A stretch of 64,000 nucleotides of DNA, taken from Myxococcales bacterium. GTDB lineage: Bacteria > Myxococcota_A > UBA9160 > UBA4427. Shown here in pieces: positions 20,975 to 50,074 of the stretch. The position numbers and the translations under genes were made by a program. Below the pieces are notes generated by a model. It had not been told where the DNA came from and searched no databases. It saw only the letters and a program-made list of their open reading frames with translations. The stretch covers positions 9,025-73,024 of the forward strand of contig JADFNE010000016.1 in the NCBI GenBank assembly GCA_022563535.1, written 5' to 3'. Numbering within the stretch: position 1 is the stretch's first letter; every line of letters begins with the position of its first letter.

Positions 20975-21514
20975 TCAGCCCTGCCCCGTCAGCTTCGCCA
21001 CGATCTCGTCGATGGCCTTGTCCGCGATCTGCACCATCTCTTCATCCGTGCGGTCCTGGATGGGATGTTCGGTAAAGACGGGTGAGGCTTCGAAGCCAAG
21101 CGACCGGGCTTGCGATGCTGCCGCGCTGACGAACTCGTTCGAGGCGATGAAGACCGACGCTACGCCCTGCTCTTCCAGTGCTTTCGTGTCGTGCACACTG
21201 CACGACGTGCAGCTGCCTCAGTCCGCCAGGGCTTCGACCACCGCCGCGCACTCGTTGGCAATTTGCTGACGCAGGTCGAAGGGTGCGGGTTTCGTGAAGG
21301 TCGGCTTGCGGAAGCGCTTGATCAGGGCGCCGCGTTTGGTCAGCTCGGCTTCGAGGCGATCGAGGAAAATGTCGCCCCGGGCCTTTGAGATGTCGAGCAG
21401 ACCAATGGTCAGTCCCTCGATTGTTTCAGGTCGCGGGATTCGTTCGCGTTGAACGAGAGCCTGTTCGCCGGTCGGGTCGAGGATCACCCGTTCTGCTTCG
21501 GTGTGTGCGCTCAT
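20975..21514 (-). CDS. UGSC-family selenoprotein (179 aa, Sec at codon 99 = TGA 21218-21220)
   Basis: ORFs 21218..21514 and 20975..21196 are in one frame, separated only by TGA: EALAD-U-GSCTSCSVHD; hairpin follows the UGA; ATG 21514 overlaps the upstream stop. Confidence 0.88.
21188..21206 (-). promoter_or_regulatory. Putative bacterial SECIS hairpin
   Basis: GTCGTGCA-GTG-TGCACGAC, 8-bp stem starting 11 nt after the UGA, G-U in the loop. Confidence 0.7.
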
Positions 21515-22953
21515 GCTTGAACCTCCTTCAAGATCACTTGACTTCCCATCTCGCCGCCCACCCAGCCTGCGATGACCGCTGAAAAAAGACCCGCCGAGCC
21601 ACCGCAGTGCACGATGTATATGCCACCGGGCCGAAACTTCGGAACCGTTTCCACGGAGATCGGTCCCTGGGTACCCTCGGCCATGCCGCCAGCGCCGCGC
21701 AATAGTTCTTCGCTGGGAATGGCGCACAACTCGTGCAAGCGCGCGGTCAATTGAGCTTTATCCCAGCCGGCTTCCGCAAAGATCCGGGCGTGTTCCGGCG
21801 ACACGAGCAGCAGGCAGTCAAAAGCCAACACGATCTTTGGGTGGTAGAGCCCGCGCAGGGTCGCGGCAAAACTGCGCGACAAAGATTCGGGTTCGCGCGA
21901 AAGCTGATCGAGGATGGTGCGGGGCCCTTCCCCGGGAAATAGCGTCACGGTGTCGCGCCCCGCCTCGGAACCGAGATCGACGGACAGCGGCTGCCAGGGA
22001 GAATCTTCTTCGTTTTCGGCGATGCAGAATCCCAATTTTCCGGGGTGTCCGAAGACGGCGCGATCGACTTCTCCGGGTCGGCCCCCGCCGACGTTTCGCA
22101 CCACCAACTGCAACGCCCGTCCAATGGTCGCATTGGCACGGTTTCCCTGGCCCAGGGAATTCACTCCGGAATTCATTCCGAGTCGCTTTCGGATCGGGCC
22201 GTTGACGATCAATACCGGCCCAGCACTCAGCGTCGTGGCCAGCAGGCCATGCATGTTGAATTGGTCCGTGCAGGCAGCTTCGACTGCGGCGAGGACAAGC
22301 GGGAGATATTCGGGACGACAACCTGCCATGACTGCATTGATCGCGACTTTCTCGACCGTGCACTCGACCAGGTCCGAGGGCACCACGGCCACCACTTCGT
22401 CGGGTTTGCGCGCCGTCCCTTCGAGCATGGCGAGCACGCGCTTTTCGGTCGGGGGAACCAATGGCAAGCCATCGCTGAAGCCGTGGCCGTAGAGTGCTTC
22501 GATATCGTCTTCGAGTCGCGCCAATGGGATGCGTCGAGAGCGCAGGGTGTCGACTCCGAAGCGCAGCAACAAATCTGTCGCGTGCTCGGGGTCGACCGAG
22601 AGCGAACCGCAGCCGGGCCGCATTGCGGGCAGGTCTGCGCCGAGCCCCCTCATACCGCTGAGGGCTTCCCATTCTTCGCGGTGCCAGCCGAGCACACGTT
22701 CTTTCTCGATGCCGTCTTCGATCCGCAGCAACGTGGGAACAGCTTCGATGTTTTGATGCCAGGAAACTTCGAGGGAGCAGTCGTCCGAAACCTCGATATC
22801 ACTGGGAAAGTCGGGATCGTCTTGACTGTAGACCGTGAGCGCGCCGCCCTGGGCTAGCTGTCGCAAGACCGGGGCCACCAATTCGCAGGTAGGGCAATCT
22901 CGCTTTACGAACGCGACGATGCCGTTGGGTAGCGGTGCACTCGATCGAACCAC
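21511..22953 (-). CDS. Thioredoxin-fold (CPTC) domain fused to a large uncharacterised domain; partner of the UGSC protein
   Basis: VKRDCPTC, AVPTL, RPGCGS, then DGLPLVPPT, VEKVAINAVMAGC, GNRANATIGRA, AENEE; GTG 22953 with GGAGG RBS. Confidence 0.85.
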   Translation of the reverse strand: MVRSSAPLPNGIVAFVKRDCPTCELVAPVLRQLAQGGALTVYSQDDPDFPSDIEVSDDCSLEVSWHQNIEAVPTLLRIEDGIEKERVLGWHREEWEALSGMRGLGADLPAMRPGCGSLSVDPEHATDLLLRFGVDTLRSRRIPLARLEDDIEALYGHGFSDGLPLVPPTEKRVLAMLEGTARKPDEVVAVVPSDLVECTVEKVAINAVMAGCRPEYLPLVLAAVEAACTDQFNMHGLLATTLSAGPVLIVNGPIRKRLGMNSGVNSLGQGNRANATIGRALQLVVRNVGGGRPGEVDRAVFGHPGKLGFCIAENEEDSPWQPLSVDLGSEAGRDTVTLFPGEGPRTILDQLSREPESLSRSFAATLRGLYHPKIVLAFDCLLLVSPEHARIFAEAGWDKAQLTARLHELCAIPSEELLRGAGGMAEGTQGPISVETVPKFRPGGIYIVHCGGSAGLFSAVIAGWVGGEMGSQVILKEVQA

Positions 22954-23101
22954 AATTACGCCTCCGCGATTCCCGACACTGTAGGGGGCAACCGAGGCAC
23001 TCGCCAAATCCGGTCTCCGGGAAGCCGTGTTCCATTCGGACGGCGATCCGGGCTCGTGTTAGTCTCTGCCCCGCTGCTGTTTGAGGGGGGCCGTCCGTTC
23101 G

Positions 23102-28300: not shown

Positions 28301-29533
28301 CTACGACTCTGGAGTAAAGACCACTTCCATCTTCTTACAGGTGCGCACCAGGGACGAGGGCTGGAACTGCGGCCCATCGCTTGCGTACTCCATGTCGGGA
28401 AGGCGACGCAGCAATTCGGCAAAGGCGACCTTCATTTCCATGCGAGCGAGATTGGCGCCGAGGCAAAAATGATTGCCAATTCCGAAGGCGATGTGGTGGG
28501 GATTGCGGTCGATATCAAACACCTCGGGCGACTCGAACTCCCTTTTGTCATGGTTGGCCGTGCTGTAGACCATGAAAACCTTGTCGCCCTGACGAATTTT
28601 CTTGTCTCCGAGTTCCGTGTCCTCGACGGCGGTACGGCAGAAGGAGCGGATCGGCGTGACCCAGCGCAACATTTCTTCGACGGCCTGAGGAATCAGACTG
28701 GGATCATCGATCAGGCGCTGTCGCGCTTCCGGGTTTTCGATCAGACATTGCATGCCCCCAGAAATGCCGTTGCGCGTGGTTTCGTTGCCGGCCACGAGCA
28801 ACAGGACCATGAACATCACCAGCTCTTCTTGCGCGACTTCCCCGCCGTCGCCAATGAAGGCCGTGTCCTGCTGTTCCATGTGGGTATGCAGCAGCCCGTC
28901 GGTTTCCGCGCCGACCAAAATGCTCGCCAGATCATCCCGTGGGTTTTCGCGCCGATCGTCGAGAATTTCTCGTATGTAGGAGGTGTATTCGACGAAGGCC
29001 TGGCCTGCGGCCGCGACGATTTCCGGTTTGTCGAGATTTCCGTCGCCGGCAATCATGGCGTCCGACCATTGGTGAAAGCGCTCGCGATCATCGGGGCGGA
29101 TGCCAATCATCTCGGCGATCAACAGCAGCGGCATTGGGACCGCAAGATCGGTGACAAAATCGCATCGGCCCTTCTTCGCGACGGCGTCGATCGTTTCCGT
29201 TGCAATCCGGGTAAAGACTTCTTCTAGCTTCGAGACCATGCGGGGGGTGAAGCCACGATTGATCAGGCCACGCAGCTTGCCGTGACGCGGCTCGTCCTCG
29301 TCGATCAAGCTCAGCTTGATCGGCATTCCCGGTCGCACGCCCTCACCCGAACAGAAGAGCTGATTGTTTTTCGAAACGTAACTGACGTGCTCAAAACTCG
29401 TAACGATCCAGTGGCCACTCTTCTCAGACCAGAAAATCGGCTCATTCTCACACAAGCTGCGCAGCCGGCCTTCCATATCCGGGGTCCAATTGGCTGAACT
29501 CGTAAAATCGATATCCACATCCGTCATTTTCAT
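28301..29533 (-). CDS. Cytochrome P450 (CYP125/CYP142-like)
   Basis: [26 protein letters not shown] 29533 with AGGAG RBS. Subfamily is inference. Confidence 0.92.
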
Positions 29534-29572
29534 CGGGGGCACTCCTGGTTTGTCCACATGAACTGGTTCACT

Positions 29573-29618
29573 TGTCTCTTCGGGCTCTTCTAGCTCTTCT
29601 GTCTCTTCGGGCTCTTCT
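29573..29618. repeat. 19-bp direct repeat (TGTCTCTTCGGGCTCTTCT) with 27-bp period across the TetR stop codon
   Basis: Copies at 29573-29591 and 29600-29618. Confidence 0.8.
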
Positions 29619-30333
29619 GTTTCTTCTTCGTCCGTCGCGGCTCCGAAACTGAATGATCCGGCGCTCGAATGGCTTCCCAGCCAAACTCTGCTGCCTGCAC
29701 GATTTGCTTTTCGACCGGATAACCGGGGTCTGACAACCACGCAGTGACGGTTGCGTTGAGCATCCCGACGACCATTTCTGCCAGAAAGTCGGCGCTCATG
29801 TCGTCGCGCACTTCCCCGCAGTTTTGTCCTTCGCGCAGCATCTCGGCAAAGGGCTGATGGACTCTGAGCAGATAGGGGGGCTCGGCGCCGTCGGTTTCAC
29901 TGCGCACCATGGTGAGTACGACGTCTCGGGCAATTTCGTGGGCTTCCCCGATGTCTGCGCCAGCAGCGCGTGCAAAGCCCAACAGACGCGAACGGGTATC
30001 CGTTTTGCGCTCGAGTTCTTGATCGAGCAGGCCTTGAAGGTGGATCACCACCATGTTGGTCATCTCGAACAGGACTGCCCGCTTGTTCTGGAAGTGATTG
30101 AAAAACGTGGCCGGGGCGATATCGGCGGCCTCCGAAATCTGTTCGACGGTGGTGGCCTGGAACCCCCGGTCCCGGAACATCTTGGTCGCAACATCAAAAA
30201 TGTGCTGGCGTAGCGCCTGTTTGCGGCGTTCCCTGCGGCCGGGAGATGGGGCCGAATCAGGCTCTGGCCCCGTAGCGGTCGCGGCCTGCGGCTGAGGTGG
30301 ACGTTCTGAGCGTTTATCTGGAGAAGTCATCAT
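29590..30333 (-). CDS. TetR/AcrR family transcriptional regulator
   Basis: RRERRK..GFQATTVEQISEAADIAPATFFNHFQNK HTH; start uncertain. Confidence 0.92.
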   Translation of the reverse strand: MMTSPDKRSERPPQPQAATATGPEPDSAPSPGRRERRKQALRQHIFDVATKMFRDRGFQATTVEQISEAADIAPATFFNHFQNKRAVLFEMTNMVVIHLQGLLDQELERKTDTRSRLLGFARAAGADIGEAHEIARDVVLTMVRSETDGAEPPYLLRVHQPFAEMLREGQNCGEVRDDMSADFLAEMVVGMLNATVTAWLSDPGYPVEKQIVQAAEFGWEAIRAPDHSVSEPRRTKKKQKSPKRQKS

Positions 30334-37575: not shown

Positions 37576-38832
37576 ATGGGAGACGCCGAGCTCACTCTCG
37601 AGAACATCGACATCGTCAGCAACGAAACGTTCGCTCGCGATGGATATCCCCACGAGGCCTGGACCCTCCTGCGCCGAGAGGCACCCGTCTTTCGCTATGA
37701 CCGCGGCGTCAAGATTCCCTTCTGGGCCATCACCAAGCACGAAGACATCGTCAAGATCTCGCGCCAGTCCCATGAGAACATCAACGCACCTCGGCTCGCC
37801 GTGTTTCCCGAGTTCAGTCCGCCGACGGAAGAGGAACGGGAGATTCGACATCTGTTGCTCATGGATGCACCCGACCACCCCATTTACCGGAAGATCACCT
37901 CGTCGCACTTCACTCCACGATCGGTTCGCCGTCTTGAAGCGAGCATTGAAGAAATCACCCGGGAAACGATCGACGCCATCGCGAATGGTGGAGAGCACAG
38001 TGAATTCGATTTCGTAACATCGGTCTCCGCGCCAGTTCCCCTCGCAGTGCTGGCCGACCTGCTCGGTGTACCCCGTGAAGACTGGAAGCTGATGTTCGCC
38101 TGGACCAACGCGATTGTCGGTTCTTCCGACCCGGAGTATCAAGATACAGGGAACACGCGTCACACGGCGGATCGCGCCCGGGTGCAACTTTTCGAATACT
38201 TCTGGAACATGGCGGAAGAGCGGCGCAAGCAACCGCGGGAAGACATTTCAAGCGTGCTGGCCAACGCGAGCATCGACGGAAAGGATCTACCGCCGAGAGA
38301 ATTGCTCTCCTACTTCTTCCTGCTGGTCGTGGCCGGAAACGAAACCACGCGAAATGCCATGAGCGGGGGGCTGCTCGCCCTGATCCAGAATCCCGAACAA
38401 CTCGAGAAGCTGCGCAAGGATCCGACCTTGATCGACACTGCGGTAGAAGAGATCCTGCGCTGGACGACCCCGGTGATCCAGTTCTGCAGGACCGCAACCC
38501 GGGACTTCGAACTGCGGGGACAGACCATTCGTTCGGGAGATTCCATGTGTCTCTTCTACCCGTCTGCGAACCGCGACGAGGAAGTATTTGATCAACCCTT
38601 CGAGTTCCGGGTAGATCGACAACCCAATCACCACCTCGCATTCGGCATTGGAGAACACTTCTGCCTGGGCGCAAACCTCGCCCGACTCGAACTGCGAATC
38701 CTGTTTCGTCAACTGGCAGAACGCTTGATCGAAGTCGAACTCACCGAACCCGTCGAGCGCTTGCAGTCGAGTTTTCTCGGCGGTGTCAAGCACATGAAGA
38801 TCCGGACCCGGTTCACGAGTGATGCCATTTAA
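37576..38832 (+). CDS. Cytochrome P450 (CYP125-like)
   Basis: [31 protein letters not shown]. Confidence 0.93.
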   Translation: MGDAELTLENIDIVSNETFARDGYPHEAWTLLRREAPVFRYDRGVKIPFWAITKHEDIVKISRQSHENINAPRLAVFPEFSPPTEEEREIRHLLLMDAPDHPIYRKITSSHFTPRSVRRLEASIEEITRETIDAIANGGEHSEFDFVTSVSAPVPLAVLADLLGVPREDWKLMFAWTNAIVGSSDPEYQDTGNTRHTADRARVQLFEYFWNMAEERRKQPREDISSVLANASIDGKDLPPRELLSYFFLLVVAGNETTRNAMSGGLLALIQNPEQLEKLRKDPTLIDTAVEEILRWTTPVIQFCRTATRDFELRGQTIRSGDSMCLFYPSANRDEEVFDQPFEFRVDRQPNHHLAFGIGEHFCLGANLARLELRILFRQLAERLIEVELTEPVERLQSSFLGGVKHMKIRTRFTSDAI

Positions 38833-38852
38833 TTCCCAAACGGAGCCCCCAG

Positions 38853-39797
38853 ATGAAACCATTCCGCTTTGGAGTCCAGGCCGCCCAACTCCCCAGTGAT
38901 CGCTGGGAAGATGCAGCGCGCCAGATCGAGGCCCTCGGCTATTCGACGCTGTTCTTTCCCGACCACTTCGGCAGCCAGTGGGATCCGATGACGGCGCTTC
39001 CCGCCATCAGCACTGCGACCGAAACACTCAACGTGGGTTCCCTCGTCTACGACATCGACTACCGACACCCGGTCATCTATGCCAAGGCCGCCGCGACGCT
39101 CCACGTACTCTCAGGGGGACGCTTCGAATTCGGCATCGGCGCAGGTTGGATGGAGACCGACTACGTCGAAGCTGGCCTGCATTACGACCGTGCCGGGGTG
39201 CGAATCTCTCGGCTCGACGAGGCGCTGCAGATCATTTTTTCAATGTGGCAGAACGAACGGACGAGCTTTGAGGGGGAGCACTACACGATTCGCGAGATCG
39301 CCCAGGCAGTCGCGTTGCCCGAGGGCCAGCGCCCCAAGGTCCTGATCGGCGGCGGTGGGAAACGCTTGCTAACCCTGGCCGGCCGCTACGCCGACATTGT
39401 GGGCATCAACCCGGCGCTCCCCGAAGGTCGGGTCACTAGCGCGACGCCGGCAGATTCTTCCCCCGAGCGCATCCGCGAAAAAGTCTCCTGGGTCCGCGAA
39501 GGGGCCATCGCAGCGGGACGAAACCCCGACGACATCGAACTCAATTCGCTGACCTTCGTGACTGCGATCGTGGATGACCCTTCGAGCGTTCGCGAGGCGA
39601 TCGCCAAGTCGAGCGGGATGACGGTCGAGCAGGTTGCGGATTGCCCCCTGTTCCTGACGGGCTCGGCCAGTGAGATTCGCGATCGGCTCGAAAAACGACG
39701 CGAGGACACGGGCATCAGCTACACGGTGATTCAGGCGGGGGACGATGCACTGCTCGAAACTTTCGCCAAGGAAATCGTCGAACCCCTGACCCGCTGA
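38853..39797 (+). CDS. LLM-class, probably F420-dependent oxidoreductase
   Basis: KPFRFGV, PDHF, YRHP, LSGGRFEFGIGAGW, IGGGGKRLL. Confidence 0.88.
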   Translation: MKPFRFGVQAAQLPSDRWEDAARQIEALGYSTLFFPDHFGSQWDPMTALPAISTATETLNVGSLVYDIDYRHPVIYAKAAATLHVLSGGRFEFGIGAGWMETDYVEAGLHYDRAGVRISRLDEALQIIFSMWQNERTSFEGEHYTIREIAQAVALPEGQRPKVLIGGGGKRLLTLAGRYADIVGINPALPEGRVTSATPADSSPERIREKVSWVREGAIAAGRNPDDIELNSLTFVTAIVDDPSSVREAIAKSSGMTVEQVADCPLFLTGSASEIRDRLEKRREDTGISYTVIQAGDDALLETFAKEIVEPLTR

Positions 39798-39817
39798 GCG
39801 CTGAATTCAGACTCGAA

Positions 39818-40426
39818 TCAGTCCTTCGTCAAAAAGTGGCGAACGAGTTCAAAGCGATCGTTGCCCCAGAACATCTTGTCTTCGACAAAGATCGTCGGGA
39901 CTCCGAATACGCCCCGTTCAATGGCCTCTTTGGTGTCGATCTCGAGACGCGTCACCAACTCCTCGGACTCGGCACGCGCCAGGGCAGCGTCCGCATCGAG
40001 CCCGGCGTCTTTGAGCAGCGAATGAACCACTCCCGGGTCGGCGGGATCTCTCGGCTGTGCCCAGCGAGCGCGATACATCGGGCCGTGAAACTCATGAAAG
40101 CGTCCCTCGTCCTTCGCCACCAATGCCGCGCGCAACGACAGGCTGGTGTCGCTCTTCATGAACTCGCGCGCATTCGGTGAGATTTCGGCGCCACACAACT
40201 CGGCCCAGTGCAGCAGGCTCGCCATGTAGTCGGCGCGCTTGCGAGGCCCAGATTCTGGCGGCCGGCTGGGCTTTTCCTGGCCCTCGGGAGGTTCGATCAG
40301 CTTGCGGAGCCGGACGGGGCGAAAATCGATCTCGACGTCCAGGTCCCTAAAGTAGGCTTCGACTCGGCAACTGCCGAAGTAGGCCCAAGGTCAAGCGTAG
40401 TCGTAATAAAAGGGAATCGTGCGCAT
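39818..40426 (-). CDS. DsbA/HCCA isomerase/kappa-GST family selenoprotein (202 aa, Sec at codon 12 = TGA 40391-40393)
   Basis: MRTIPFYYDYA-U-PWAYFGSC.. continues without other stops into ORF 39818..40225 (GVFGVPTIFV, FWGNDR); GAGGA RBS before ATG 40426; hairpin after the UGA. Confidence 0.85.
40362..40380 (-). promoter_or_regulatory. Putative bacterial SECIS hairpin
   Basis: AC[T]TCGGC-AGTT-GCCGAGT: 7-bp stem with a bulged U and G-U in the loop, +11..+29 after the UGA. Confidence 0.7.
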
Positions 40427-40481
40427 CGAATTTTTCCTCGGGTTGTCGGTTGGTTGTCGCTTGGTAATCGACGTGGTGCCC

Positions 40482-41201
40482 TCAGGCCTCCAAAGTCTTT
40501 CGTCCCGCCTCACTGCCTCGTCGGCTCAGTTCAATCAGTCGAACCGTGTGCGCGACCAGGGTCGGTCGTTCCGCGAGCATTACGGCACTTCCCGCCATCG
40601 GGCCGTCGCGCATCAACAGCAGCATCCCAAATACTGCGAGATCCGCAACGCTGAGCTGATCGGCGTAGAAATAGGGGCGGCTGCCGAGAAAGCCCACCAG
40701 GTCGTCCAGGCGAGCAGACAACTCTTCCGAAATAATTTCGGTCCCCGGAATGACCTCGTTTGCAGGCTCCGATTCGATTCCCATGCGCTCTTCGACGCGC
40801 TGGTGAATGCGGGTCAGGAGTCCCGGCGAGGAACGAGCCTGCTTTCGCTCGTGTTCATCCCTCGCTGTGCGCCAACGGTTCCAGTAAAAAGCAAAGCTCG
40901 CGTCGGACCAGATGGCCAGGCTCTCCTGTTGCCGACGAATCCGTGGCAGTGCGGAGAACAGTGAGGGCTCTGGAAATAGCTGCTCGAGCCAGACGAGAAT
41001 TTCGCCCGATTCCGAGACTCGCTTTCCGTCCACCTCGAGTACCGGCAGGGTCTGCTTGTCCGGGCTCAGCCGCTTGATTTCCTCGGCATCGCTGACCTCG
41101 ATGCGCCGATAGTCCACCCCCTTGAGCGCGAGCGCACACGCCACTTTTTCGGTGAAGGGGTTCAGGGCCTGGGAATAGAGATTGACGTTGGGCATTGGCA
41201 T
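40482..41201 (-). CDS. Glutathione S-transferase family protein
   Basis: NPFTEKV, LPVL..ESGEI, LSVADLAVFG; alternative start 41225. Confidence 0.85.
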   Translation of the reverse strand: MPMPNVNLYSQALNPFTEKVACALALKGVDYRRIEVSDAEEIKRLSPDKQTLPVLEVDGKRVSESGEILVWLEQLFPEPSLFSALPRIRRQQESLAIWSDASFAFYWNRWRTARDEHERKQARSSPGLLTRIHQRVEERMGIESEPANEVIPGTEIISEELSARLDDLVGFLGSRPYFYADQLSVADLAVFGMLLLMRDGPMAGSAVMLAERPTLVAHTVRLIELSRRGSEAGRKTLEA

Positions 41202-41348
41202 CTTGGGTCTAATTGATTCCGTCAATGCCAGTTGCGTTCTCGCCAGGCTGCGGAATCGGGGGTTGAAAATTGGAGTCTAGCTCGGGGTGCCCGTTTACGC
41301 GACGCCGCTGGGCCGAAGAACAAAGCCACCGGAGCGAAACTCGAAAAT

Positions 41349-46342: not shown

Positions 46343-47836
46343 TTGCCCCTGTCCCCCCTCGCTCCCGAAACCCGAAATCTGATCGACGGTGAATTGTGTC
46401 ACGCCAGCAACGGCAACACGTTCGATAATCTGAATCCGACCACAGGACAGATACTCGGGCAGGCCGCAGACGGCACCAAGGACGACATGCTCCGCGCGGT
46501 CGAAGTCGCGCGCCGCGCCTTCGACGAAACCGATTGGTCTGTCGACCCTGAATTTCGCAGCCGCTGCCTGCGACAACTCTATGAAGGGTTGGTCGAAGAG
46601 AAAGAACAGCTTCGCGCAATCGTCGTCCACGAGGCCGGCGCACCCATTTCCTTGACCCCCTACATGCACGTGGACGATCCGATCGAGATGATGTCCTACT
46701 GGGCAGATCTCACCGCCTCGTATGAGTACGAAATCCGCATGCCCGACGTGCCCTTCTTGGGCAAGCCCCAGGGCCGCTTGCTGCGCAAGGAGGCGGCCGG
46801 CGTAGTCGGGGCCATCACACCCTGGAACGTGCCGCTGTATCTCAATATCGCCAAGATCGGCCCGGCACTGGGAGCGGGCTGCACCCTCGTGCTCAAGCCG
46901 GCGCCCGACACACCGTGGTCGGCGACGCATATCGGCAAGATCGTCGCGGAGAAGACCGACATTCCCGCAGGCGTATTCAACATCGTCGCCTCCTCGGATC
47001 ACATGACCGGCGAGATCCTGTCCTCGGATCCGCGCATCGATCTGGTGTCGTTTACGGGCTCGACCGCGACCGGGCGGCGCATTATGGAATCTGCCGCGCC
47101 CACGGTGAAGAGTGTGTTCCTCGAGCTGGGCGGCAAGTCCGCAAACATCGTGCTCGACGACGCCGACCTGGCAGCGGTACTTCCCGGGGCCGCCATGACG
47201 TGTGTCCATGCTGGACAGGGCTGCGCGATCACCACCCGCCTGCTGGTCCCCCGTGCTCGCTACGACGAAGCCATCGAGATCCTCATCGGGGCCTTTGAAA
47301 ATTGGAACTACGGCGACCCCACCAACCCAGCCAATCTTCAAGGCCCCCAGATCAGCAAGCGTCAGCAAGAGCGGGTGCTGCGCTACATCGAAATAGGAAA
47401 GCGAGATGGAGCGCGCTGCGTGGTCGGGGGCGGCAAGCCGAGCGGTGACCTCGGAGACAAGGGGTGTTTTGTCGAACCGACTCTGTTCGTCGATGTAGAT
47501 CCCGACTCGACGATCGCTCAGGAAGAAATCTTTGGCCCCGTGCTCTGCGTGATTCCCTACGAGGATGACGATGATGCCGTGCGCATCGCGAACAATTCCG
47601 AGTACGGGCTTTCGGGCGCCGTTCAGACAAATGACATCGAACGCGGGATCGCGGTAGCGCGCAGAATTCGCGCGGGAACCCTGTCGGTCGCGGGCGCTCA
47701 GTGGTTCCATCCCGACACGCCATTTGGCGGCTACAAGCAAAGTGGTGTAGGACGCGAAAACGGAGTGATGGGATTCGAAAGCATGCTCGAAACCAAGGTG
47801 ATCGCCATCCCTGCAGACTCGACAGTGGGCAAGTGA
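46343..47836 (+). CDS. Aldehyde dehydrogenase
   Basis: ITPWN, FTGST, LELGGKS, GQGC, EEIFGP, PFGGYKQSG. Confidence 0.95.
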   Translation: MPLSPLAPETRNLIDGELCHASNGNTFDNLNPTTGQILGQAADGTKDDMLRAVEVARRAFDETDWSVDPEFRSRCLRQLYEGLVEEKEQLRAIVVHEAGAPISLTPYMHVDDPIEMMSYWADLTASYEYEIRMPDVPFLGKPQGRLLRKEAAGVVGAITPWNVPLYLNIAKIGPALGAGCTLVLKPAPDTPWSATHIGKIVAEKTDIPAGVFNIVASSDHMTGEILSSDPRIDLVSFTGSTATGRRIMESAAPTVKSVFLELGGKSANIVLDDADLAAVLPGAAMTCVHAGQGCAITTRLLVPRARYDEAIEILIGAFENWNYGDPTNPANLQGPQISKRQQERVLRYIEIGKRDGARCVVGGGKPSGDLGDKGCFVEPTLFVDVDPDSTIAQEEIFGPVLCVIPYEDDDDAVRIANNSEYGLSGAVQTNDIERGIAVARRIRAGTLSVAGAQWFHPDTPFGGYKQSGVGRENGVMGFESMLETKVIAIPADSTVGK

Positions 47837-49494
47837 GTAGTCAAGCGAGTACCCCGAGCGAATCGGAGCCCCTGGCTCCGTCGCGGGCCGCGCATCCAGG
47901 AGGGCGGGCGCCGCCGGTGCTGTCCCGTTCCCGACCGCTGATCGGCCATCTGGGCGAGTTGCGCCGCGATCCGATCGGATTGTTTCAACGGGTGCGCGAC
48001 GAACTTGGAGAAATCGGAGAAATCAATTTCGCGGGCAACCGCGTGGTAATGATGATCGGAGAGGAGGCGCAAGAGGCCTTCTTCCGCGGAAGTGACGAAC
48101 AACTCGATCAGGCGGCCGCCTATCCCTTCATGACCCCGATCTTTGGCAAGGGCGTGGTCTTCGACGGCACTCCCGAACAACGCAAGCAGGCGATTCGCAA
48201 CCAGTCCCTCACCGCAAAATTCATGAAAGGGCACGCCGAGACGATCTCCGGCGAAGTCCATCGCATGATCGAGCGGCTCGGCGATGAAGGCGAGATCGAC
48301 TTGCTCGACTTCTTTTCCGAACTCACGATCTACACCTCGAGCGCCTGCTTGATCGGCAAGGAGTTTCGGGAAGAGTTGACGCCGGAATACTTCCAGGCAT
48401 TTTACGAGTTGGAGAAGGGAACCGACGCGATCGCATACGTGAACGCCAACCTTCCGCTACCAGCATTTCGCGCGAGAGACCGCGCGCGCCGGCGCCTGGT
48501 CAGTCTGCTCACCGATGTATTCGAGCGGCGACGTCAGAATCCAAACGCGAAACGCGAATTGTTCGATGTGCTGCTCACCCTCGAGGACGAGCACGGTGAG
48601 CCCCGATACCCGATCGACAAGATTACCGGCATGTTCATCTCACTCATGTTCGCGGGGCACCATACGACTTCGGGCAGCGCAGCCTGGACCCTGATCGAAC
48701 TGCTCAAGAACCCTCACATCATGAAGGACGTCGTCAGCGAACTCGACGAACTCTACGCAGATGGGCGCGATGTGAGCTATCAGGCCCTGCGAGAGATCCC
48801 CGCCCTCGAACATTCGATCCTCGAAGCCCTGCGCATGCATCCTCCGCTGATCATCTTGATGCGAAAGGTGATGTACGACTTCCACTACAAAGGTTTCACG
48901 ATCGCCGCTGGCAAACTCGTGGCCGTATCGCCTTCGATTTCGAATCGAATGCCCGAGTGCTTTCCCGACCCCGACCGCTACGACCCGAGCCGCTACGAGC
49001 ACTGGCGCGAAGAAGACAAGCAGAACTTTGCCTGGATCCCCTTCGGCGCGGGCCACCACCGTTGTGTCGGATCGGCGTTCGCGATGATGCAGCTCAAGGC
49101 AATTTTCAGTGAGCTGTTGCGCCACTACGATTTTGAATTGTCCCAGCCGCACGCGAGCTACGAGAACGACCATTCGAAGATGGTGGTCCAGTTGAAACAA
49201 CCGTGCCGGGCCCGCTACCGCCGGCGGCGAACGATCGCAGTTGCAAGCGCCAGTCGTTCGCAGGCCAAGCAAGAACCCCTGGCCCCCGGAGCCTTTCGGA
49301 TCTGCGTCAATATGGACCTCTGTCAGGGCCACGGCGTCTGCGTGGGGGAAGCGCCCGAGATCTTCGAAGTCGAACGCGAAGACAACAAGGTCGTGCTGAA
49401 GAAACGTGATCACGGCGAAGAACAACGCGCGCGGGTTGAACTCGCCGTAGAGCATTGCCCCACACGCGCGTTGTCTATCGAAACAGATGATTGA
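47833..49494 (+). CDS. cyp51: CYP51 (sterol 14-alpha-demethylase family) P450 fused to a C-terminal ferredoxin
   Basis: AYPFMTPIFGKGVVFD, ELTIYTSSACLIG, ISLMFAGHHTT, FGAGHHRCVG, then linker and CQGHGVC...CP; GTG 47833 overlaps the ALDH stop. Confidence 0.9.
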   Translation: MSSQASTPSESEPLAPSRAAHPGGRAPPVLSRSRPLIGHLGELRRDPIGLFQRVRDELGEIGEINFAGNRVVMMIGEEAQEAFFRGSDEQLDQAAAYPFMTPIFGKGVVFDGTPEQRKQAIRNQSLTAKFMKGHAETISGEVHRMIERLGDEGEIDLLDFFSELTIYTSSACLIGKEFREELTPEYFQAFYELEKGTDAIAYVNANLPLPAFRARDRARRRLVSLLTDVFERRRQNPNAKRELFDVLLTLEDEHGEPRYPIDKITGMFISLMFAGHHTTSGSAAWTLIELLKNPHIMKDVVSELDELYADGRDVSYQALREIPALEHSILEALRMHPPLIILMRKVMYDFHYKGFTIAAGKLVAVSPSISNRMPECFPDPDRYDPSRYEHWREEDKQNFAWIPFGAGHHRCVGSAFAMMQLKAIFSELLRHYDFELSQPHASYENDHSKMVVQLKQPCRARYRRRRTIAVASASRSQAKQEPLAPGAFRICVNMDLCQGHGVCVGEAPEIFEVEREDNKVVLKKRDHGEEQRARVELAVEHCPTRALSIETDD

Positions 49495-49513
49495 ATGAGC
49501 CAGAGGAGACGAA

Positions 49514-50074
49514 ATGCCCGCATTCCCCCGAGACGAAATGGAAGAAATGGTAGACCGCTGGGTTGCGGCCAATAACGCTGCTGGCAGTAGTGGCGACTGG
49601 TCGAAGATGTCTGAATTTTATACCGAAGACGCCGTGTACAGCTGGAACATGGGTCCCAATTGGGAGTTCGTCGCCCGGGGACGCAAACAGATTCACGAAA
49701 CAGCCTTTGGTTCGGAAATGAGTGGACTCGAGCACTGGACCTATCCCTACGTGCGGCGCCTGATCGACGATCAGAAGGGAGAGTTCCTCGGAATCTGGCG
49801 TCAGATCGCGCCGATCGAGGATCCCGATGGTGATCCGTACGAGATTCACGGCACGGGCGGCAGTTGGTTTCGTTACGCGGGTGACTTCAAATGGTGCTGG
49901 CAGCGAGACTTCTTTGACCACGGAAATGCTGGCGCGGTGTTTGGCGCCATGATGAAGAACGGCGACCTGAGCGAACGCATGCAAGAACGCATGAAGGCGG
50001 GTAGCAAGATGCCTGGATGGACCCGGCGCTCGGAGTTCGACTGGTTTACGACCCTCGAAGATCCAGACGCCTAG
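49514..50074 (+). CDS. NTF2/SnoaL-like protein (Rv0762c-like)
   Basis: FYTEDAVYSWNMGP, WTYPY, GGSWFRYAG, WQRDFFD; GAGGAG RBS. Confidence 0.85.
   Translation: MPAFPRDEMEEMVDRWVAANNAAGSSGDWSKMSEFYTEDAVYSWNMGPNWEFVARGRKQIHETAFGSEMSGLEHWTYPYVRRLIDDQKGEFLGIWRQIAPIEDPDGDPYEIHGTGGSWFRYAGDFKWCWQRDFFDHGNAGAVFGAMMKNGDLSERMQERMKAGSKMPGWTRRSEFDWFTTLEDPDA

Follow-up and report, generated by a model that had tools for sequence, protein, structure and literature searches.

A gene on the minus strand at positions 40426-39818 of the window (the whole 64,000-nucleotide stretch of Myxococcales DNA analyzed here) very likely encodes a selenoprotein, judging from comparison with its orthologs. Together with these it would form a well-supported selenoprotein subfamily on the scaffold of HCCA isomerases and kappa glutathione S-transferases (GSTs), and the subfamily is likely uncatalogued. 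Serine, cysteine and selenocysteine (Sec) all occur at one catalytic site of this one scaffold. The reason for having Sec instead of Cys becomes testable without engineering, as the Cys and Sec orthologs occur in genomes that are nearly all Sec-capable. The subfamily is truncated by gene callers, and it provides a clean natural series in which the SECIS element is on or off. Precedent limits the novelty: DsbA-like selenoproteins without CxxC have been catalogued, Cys/Sec exchange is routine, and the function proposed below is a prediction.

The gene, its in-frame TGA and the downstream hairpin

The gene and the elements near its start are listed here.

40426-39818, minus strand: full gene, 202 aa with Sec for the TGA at codon 12; a PF01323 member of the HCCA-isomerase/kappa-GST group
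40436..40439, minus strand: GAGG, likely ribosome-binding site, 9 nt 5' of the ATG; comparable purine tracts precede the TGA orthologs
40393-40391, minus strand: in-frame TGA, codon 12, in the context D-Y-A-U-P-W-A; in HCCA isomerase and GSTK1 the aligned residue is the catalytic Ser
40353..40387, minus strand: SECIS-type hairpin that spans +4 to +38 from the TGA and has an apical loop A-G-U-U beginning 18 nt past the codon
40365..40376, minus strand: hairpin core of 12 invariant bases, CGGCAGTTGCCG, at +15 to +26, coding for G18-S19-C20-R21

The standard ORF list covers just 39818-40225, the last 135 aa of the 202-aa gene. The original prediction had placed the true start at an upstream ATG with a ribosome-binding site, and translation of 40426-39818 confirms an open frame with a single internal TGA plus the terminal TGA (MRTIPFYYDYA, the TGA, then PWAYFGSC...FWGNDRFELVRHFLTKD). 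Neither a sigma-70 promoter nor a minus-strand terminator was found for this gene. A contig from one sequencing run is identical over 39696-40700 and may be the source sample itself. Contigs of other runs span the TGA, and none of the listed differences (40 rows) falls on it; these contigs were not counted as evidence.

Orthologs were collected from 41 relatives, 401 genomes of the phylum, 193 genomes of the order, one genome-collection scan and 13 further stretches. Among the matches fetched from these sets, 70 loci exceeded 45% identity and reduced to 63 distinct genes. The prediction had called for a search for homologs with TGA, Cys or Ser at codon 12; 22 carry TGA, 41 carry TGC or TGT, and none encodes Ser. 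Both flanks of the codon are conserved in the ortholog alignment, and silent differences outnumber replacements over codons 1-11 in 10 of 11 comparisons. The same codon is TGA in 21 other genomes, so that the TGA is not peculiar to this assembly, and its recurrence is far beyond chance. Cys and Sec orthologs are 55-70% identical. More distant paralogs mostly have Ser at the site, including a separate Ser-type paralog in the same genome.

Matches at E 1e-30 or better occur in 29 of the 401 genomes of the phylum sample, where close orthologs come from the same order and from a single further family within the class. Most of the close records that bear a name are assemblies of Myxococcota or Deltaproteobacteria, and a few have other labels. 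A pattern scan of metagenomes recovered 25 loci, all with frames that stay open for 200-225 codons; they encode 24 distinct proteins, of which 21 are new. The pattern required the TGA and most of the hairpin, leaving the frame, the last hairpin bases and the downstream residues as the free tests. In one TGA ortholog (L116, G491:C18) the hairpin is intact and there is an apparent mid-gene frameshift, reflecting either an assembly error or decay.

Published criteria for bacterial SECIS elements comprise a loop of 3-9 nt, a G in the first two loop positions, a spacing of 16-37 nt and an energy of -7.5 kcal/mol or lower, as given in PMC13188914. The codon-12 hairpin agrees on all four counts, with a 4-nt AGUU loop, 18 nt of spacing and a folding energy of -14.3 kcal/mol for +1 to +42 after the TGA. 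The core CGGCAGTTGCCG is present in 22 of 22 TGA genes, including all the TGA relatives in which the prediction had expected a hairpin, versus none of the 41 Cys genes, and it is absent from all 27 Cys genes that code for the identical G-S-C-R. The loop requires AGT for Ser19; this codon is used there in 22/22 TGA genes versus 10/190 of the other Ser codons in the same genes. Several Cys genes are a single silent base away from the core hairpin. Stem changes are few and one-sided with pairing kept, and no two-sided compensatory change occurs among 8 sequences. The related genes are not independent, yet the Sec forms make three separate groups and the core is common to all of them. This pattern indicates that the hairpin is under selection solely where the TGA is present.

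The proof of recoding is comparative because a hairpin in one genome alone proves little: the single-genome fold statistic is uninformative (z-score 0.18), and 78 of the 127,103 TGA triplets in the genome are followed at the same spacing by a GU-loop stem of at least 5 pairs. Rfam gave no match in the 64-kb window.

The original prediction had made its case dependent on selC and selB. Both are in the genome: tRNA-Sec (selC) was found by ARAGORN and by Rfam RF01852, and selA, selB and selD are above their cut-offs, selD itself having an in-frame TGA. A selA gene was found in 21/21 other TGA genomes and 32/36 Cys genomes; the 4 of 57 genomes without selA all have Cys forms.

Other selenoprotein genes are also present. 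Two further PF01323 genes of the genome (L158 G000:C66 and L159 G000:C74) have an in-frame TGA in D-F-Q-U-P-x-C. Both of these UxxC DsbA-like genes have strong hairpins, with G-U at the same +20/+21 as the codon-12 hairpin, and are nearest to NF041057, yet fall under its cut-off. The window itself includes a gene of the known UGSC selenoprotein family (20975-21514, minus strand; TGA at 21220-21218; NF041046 at 148 bits, cut-off 125), which overlaps a 498-aa thioredoxin-domain gene (21511-23007) at the latter's end.

Fold, placement and history of the site

Residues 3-199 of the readthrough protein match positions 1-190 of the 191-position Pfam DSBA model (E 1.8e-37). The 202-aa protein begins straight away with the first beta strand, leaving no room for a signal peptide, and inspection of the sequence start revealed no export signal. 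Among PDB entries, HCCA isomerase scores best (E 5e-13), followed by GSTK1 (9e-7) and then FrnE (4e-5). Three motifs of the scaffold are relevant.

40238..40249, minus strand: G-P-R-K, residues 60-63; in GSTK1 the motif reads L-P-R-K, with its Lys at the place of K63
39896..39913, minus strand: G-V-F-G-V-P, thioredoxin-fold cis-Pro loop, by alignment
39854..39868, minus strand: W-G-N-D-R, the GxDR motif; identical in PDB 2IMD and absent from the five FrnE-type sequences compared

The Lys of GSTK1 that K63 matches is presumably a glutathione contact from the partner subunit, and we take the GxDR residues to be glutathione contacts as well; the cis state of the Pro in G-V-F-G-V-P is assumed from the fold. 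Near-invariant in the family are K63, P177, G188, D190 and R191, whereas R62, H114 and R121 are conserved residues specific to it. The alignment bears out that the Sec site corresponds to the Ser that is catalytic in HCCA isomerase and kappa GST, and the expected HCCA-isomerase-like C-terminus is evident in W-G-N-D-R. Ser16 is the catalytic residue of GSTK1 according to PMC2757866, PMC13573697 and PMC10295636.

In a 52-row tree, five sequences of FrnE type, among them three UxxC selenoproteins, are separated from the GxDR group by a branch with support 100/100, which carries a long-branch warning. The Sec/Cys family is one clade (95/80) and the first to branch within the GxDR group, with weak support (91/68). 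Sec or Cys in 63/63 orthologs means that these are not classical D-x-x-S-P serine enzymes. The arrangement D9-Y-A-U12-P13 is that of DxxUP in PF01323. The UxxC or CxxC of DsbA/FrnE is missing: as foreseen for U-P-W-A with no resolving Cys at +3, that position is Ala in 41/41 Sec forms (20 full-length from genomes and 21 from metagenomes) and 40/40 DNA-verified Cys forms, thus in all 81 DNA-verified members. Taken together, sequence and tree place the protein with the HCCA isomerases and kappa GSTs, apart from the FrnE-type DsbA selenoproteins. Among the NCBIfam models, 0 families matched the 202-aa protein at E 0.001, and one Cys ortholog reached 18 bits against a cut-off of 190.

A large family of ~400-440 aa proteins contains two kappa-type domains (P0122-P0128, P0136-P0280); in 76 of 81 such tandem proteins one domain has DxxCP and the other DxxSP, much as if a Cys/Ser heterodimer had been fused, and neither of the two that were tested reached the cut-off of any NCBIfam model. 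In several relatives (G003:C267, G024:C55, G010:C186, G005:C80, G012:C21), distant PF01323 paralogs lie side by side in pairs, ~700 bases apart, and are possibly the unfused version of the tandem proteins. Longer forms of the protein were sought as well: none of the 10 matches is a crotonase fusion, though this counts as weak evidence.

The history of Sec was followed in a tree of 20 full-length Sec and 40 Cys forms from which the Sec, hairpin and Cys78 columns were removed (2 Sec genes and 1 Cys gene were too short and were left out). The Sec forms make groups of 11, 8 and 1 among the 40 Cys forms, and at least 3 changes are needed. A single Sec clade was rejected (AU p 0.005, under LG+G4 without mixture). 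Repeated gain and repeated loss are indistinguishable on this tree. At the outgroup GxDR domains with Cys or Ser at the site, 98 of 223 have Cys and 125 have Ser. Because Cys is so common at the site across the GxDR group, the change appears to be the usual Cys/Sec exchange and not a direct jump from Ser to Sec, and Cys may be ancestral. A direct path from Ser to Cys to Sec was also considered and set aside, as the Sec/Cys family is not nested inside the Ser forms with support.

Predicted chemistry and its alternatives

We predict, at about even chances, a cytoplasmic glutathione-dependent reductase or peroxidase that works via a Sec-glutathione intermediate on the kappa scaffold. SelB would read the hairpin and place Sec12 where helix 1 begins. 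The selenolate would attack a glutathionylated or peroxide substrate, and a mixed intermediate of Sec and glutathione would form in the retained kappa-type glutathione site. A second glutathione would then free the Sec, and glutathione reductase would recycle the GSSG; gshB and glutathione reductase of the genome pass their cut-offs. Such a cycle would be the one described for cysteine GSTs, transferred to a kappa scaffold. Cysteine GSTs, some with a CPWA motif, have a proposed cycle via a mixed disulfide with glutathione, as described in PMC4138524. GSTs engineered from Ser to Sec gain peroxidase activity, as reported in PMC9944854, and GSTK1 has peroxidase and disulfide-reducing activity that depends on Ser16, as reported in PMC10295636.

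Two features of the family may qualify this prediction. Position 70 is Asp in 40/40 Cys forms and Ser, Asn or Thr in 24/41 Sec forms, and Sec and Cys forms may thus differ in mechanism. The family-specific R62, H114 and R121 could mean another substrate or cofactor.

The gene surroundings offer no pathway clue, as no conserved gene neighbors were identified across 63 loci, most with ~1.5 kb of flank. A gene with a GST domain and a CoA-transferase gene precede the TGA gene on the same strand, and the gene for an F420-dependent oxidoreductase is convergent. The gene directly upstream (40482-41225, minus strand) encodes a GST N-domain and recurs nearby in just 3 loci, all of the same genus. Also encoded in the window (28301-29740, 37576-39797 and 46343-50074) are several cytochromes P450, an F420-dependent LLM oxidoreductase and an aldehyde dehydrogenase. 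The frame at 47701-49494 resembles what we take to be a CYP51-like P450 joined to a ferredoxin.

The point against a purely glutathione-resolved cycle is a cysteine that tracks Sec and is not needed in such a cycle.

40193..40195, minus strand: codon of Cys78, candidate distant resolving Cys; 40/41 Sec forms versus 5/40 DNA-verified Cys forms
40367..40369, minus strand: codon of Cys20, within the hairpin; 41/41 Sec forms, 30/40 Cys forms

Oxidized Sec12 could instead pair with Cys78, of the same or the partner subunit, or with Cys20, to form a selenenylsulfide that thioredoxin or glutathione then reduces. We regard this as unlikely, though the distribution of Cys78 speaks for it. The residue is present in 20/20 full-length genome Sec forms, 20/21 metagenome Sec forms and 12/12 N-truncated database matches, in all three Sec groups, versus few of the Cys forms (13/108 of the database proteins with C at position 12, whose codon is unverified). 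Selenoprotein MsrB1 sets a precedent: its resolving Cys is Sec-specific and missing in Cys forms, as described in PMC1278935. Against this, there are just 3 phylogenetically independent pairs (sign test p 0.5), by which a statistical link between Sec and Cys78 is not established. Cys78 is also found in the earliest-branching Cys member and may be ancestral and passive, and the bulky hydrophobic residues at position 78 in the outgroups suggest a buried site. As for Cys20, it varies among Cys forms and its codon is part of the hairpin; the RNA, and not a catalytic role, may account for its conservation. The co-occurrence of Cys78 with Sec is a lead, not a result. The original prediction of a mono-selenol enzyme therefore stands as to the missing Cys at +3 and is unsettled otherwise, since Cys78 tracks Sec.

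It is improbable that the protein keeps the classical work of HCCA isomerases and kappa GSTs, namely conjugation or the cis-trans isomerization of an unsaturated carbonyl, with Sec activating glutathione or serving as the nucleophile. HCCA isomerases are the closest solved structures and GxDR is intact; many orthologs are automatically annotated as HCCA isomerase, although such names merely follow the family. The use of Cys or Sec by every ortholog, with Ser in none, points to redox chemistry, and the genome has a separate Ser-type paralog. Moreover, no recurrent aromatic-degradation neighbor appears among the clusters common to at least 3 loci.

A DsbA/FrnE-like disulfide oxidase or isomerase that acts on protein thiols without glutathione is a still more doubtful candidate. 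The Pfam DSBA match, weak FrnE matches and the broad tree, in which the family splits off first among the GxDR sequences and stands closest to the FrnE outgroup (91/68), are in keeping with it, but no member has a Cys at +3, GxDR replaces the C-terminal motif of FrnE, and a sequence that begins at the first strand has no export signal.

That the TGA reflects faulty sequencing or really ends translation, and that the gene is a pseudogene or the source of an N-truncated product, is extremely improbable and effectively refuted: gene callers do give truncated versions (12 N-truncated among the best 120 matches) and one TGA ortholog (G491) appears frameshifted, but 22 genomes share this TGA, as do another 21 genes from metagenomes, and their frames run open to the usual length; the hairpin is strictly tied to the TGA, and differences in the codons before it are mostly silent.

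Returning to the glutathione-dependent selenoenzyme, a broader and tentative picture, in our estimate rather unlikely to hold in all its parts, is that of a natural seleno-kappa-GST, the counterpart of the engineered peroxidase-mimic seleno-GSTs and uncatalogued as a distinct family. In it, Sec would have been switched on more than once since the G-S-C-R codons need one or two silent changes to become a working SECIS, and the Sec forms would have a dedicated distant Cys78 that the Cys forms let decay.

Comparison with known systems

Literature searches within open-access scope found no work joining selenoproteins with 2-hydroxychromene-2-carboxylate isomerase, and none joining selenoproteins and selenocysteine with Myxococcota. 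The accessible text of PMC1088965, PMC12013277, PMC9312934 and PMC5029168 has no entry for a kappa-type selenoprotein. BSepDB (PMC13326102), going by its description, may already include kappa-type genes under the DsbA label.

The closest catalogued relatives are DsbA-like. The listing in PMC13188914 has 119 prokaryotic selenoprotein families, including DsbA-like form 1 (UxxC) and form 2 (PF01323, DxxUP), and "DsbA 3" of the GOS data, with UxxV, is listed in PMC2398784. Form 2 and GOS DsbA 3 share with the family the PF01323 fold, Sec in D-x-x-U-P and the lack of a Cys at +3, as far as these listings describe them. Unlike the family, GOS DsbA 3 has printed sequences (PMC2398784) that end in another motif without GxDR, a comparison made by eye only. 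The DxxUP form 2 group, known by description only, seems to be a different branch from the kappa-type family; the word "crotonase" is absent from the text and five supplements available for its cited source (PMC5029168). The UxxA subtype had at first seemed impossible to place. That claim holds insofar as the published sequences compared lack the kappa motif, whereas the motif type itself (DxxUP) is already listed in PMC13188914.

DsbA-like form 1, of FrnE type, likewise belongs to PF01323 and has Sec at the same position, but it has the Cys at +3, lacks GxDR and lies across the 100/100 branch. Form 1 UPWC genes with hairpins of their own were identified in three related genomes (L125 G022, L126 G003, L127 G005).

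In scaffold the protein is most like HCCA isomerase (PDB 2IMD, 3FZ5) and kappa GST (GSTK1; 1YZX, 3RPN, 1R4W), with which it aligns over its full length and shares D-x-x-[site]-P where helix 1 begins, the cis-Pro loop, GxDR and Lys 63. It differs from them in having Sec or Cys for the catalytic Ser, and in its own R62, H114, R121, C20 and C78. In its predicted mode of action it resembles the cysteine GSTs (omega, lambda, DHAR and glutathionyl-hydroquinone reductases with CPWA), in which a single catalytic thiol lies in C-P-W/F/Y-A, as described in PMC4138524. Theirs is the canonical two-domain GST fold and not the DsbA-type kappa fold, so that the comparison is one of working and not of membership. 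Finally, the engineered seleno-GSTs (theta, zeta and others) described in PMC9944854 also have Sec at the position of the catalytic Ser on a glutathione-binding scaffold. Those proteins are artificial and built on canonical GST scaffolds, whereas the family here appears to be natural, genetically encoded and kappa-type.
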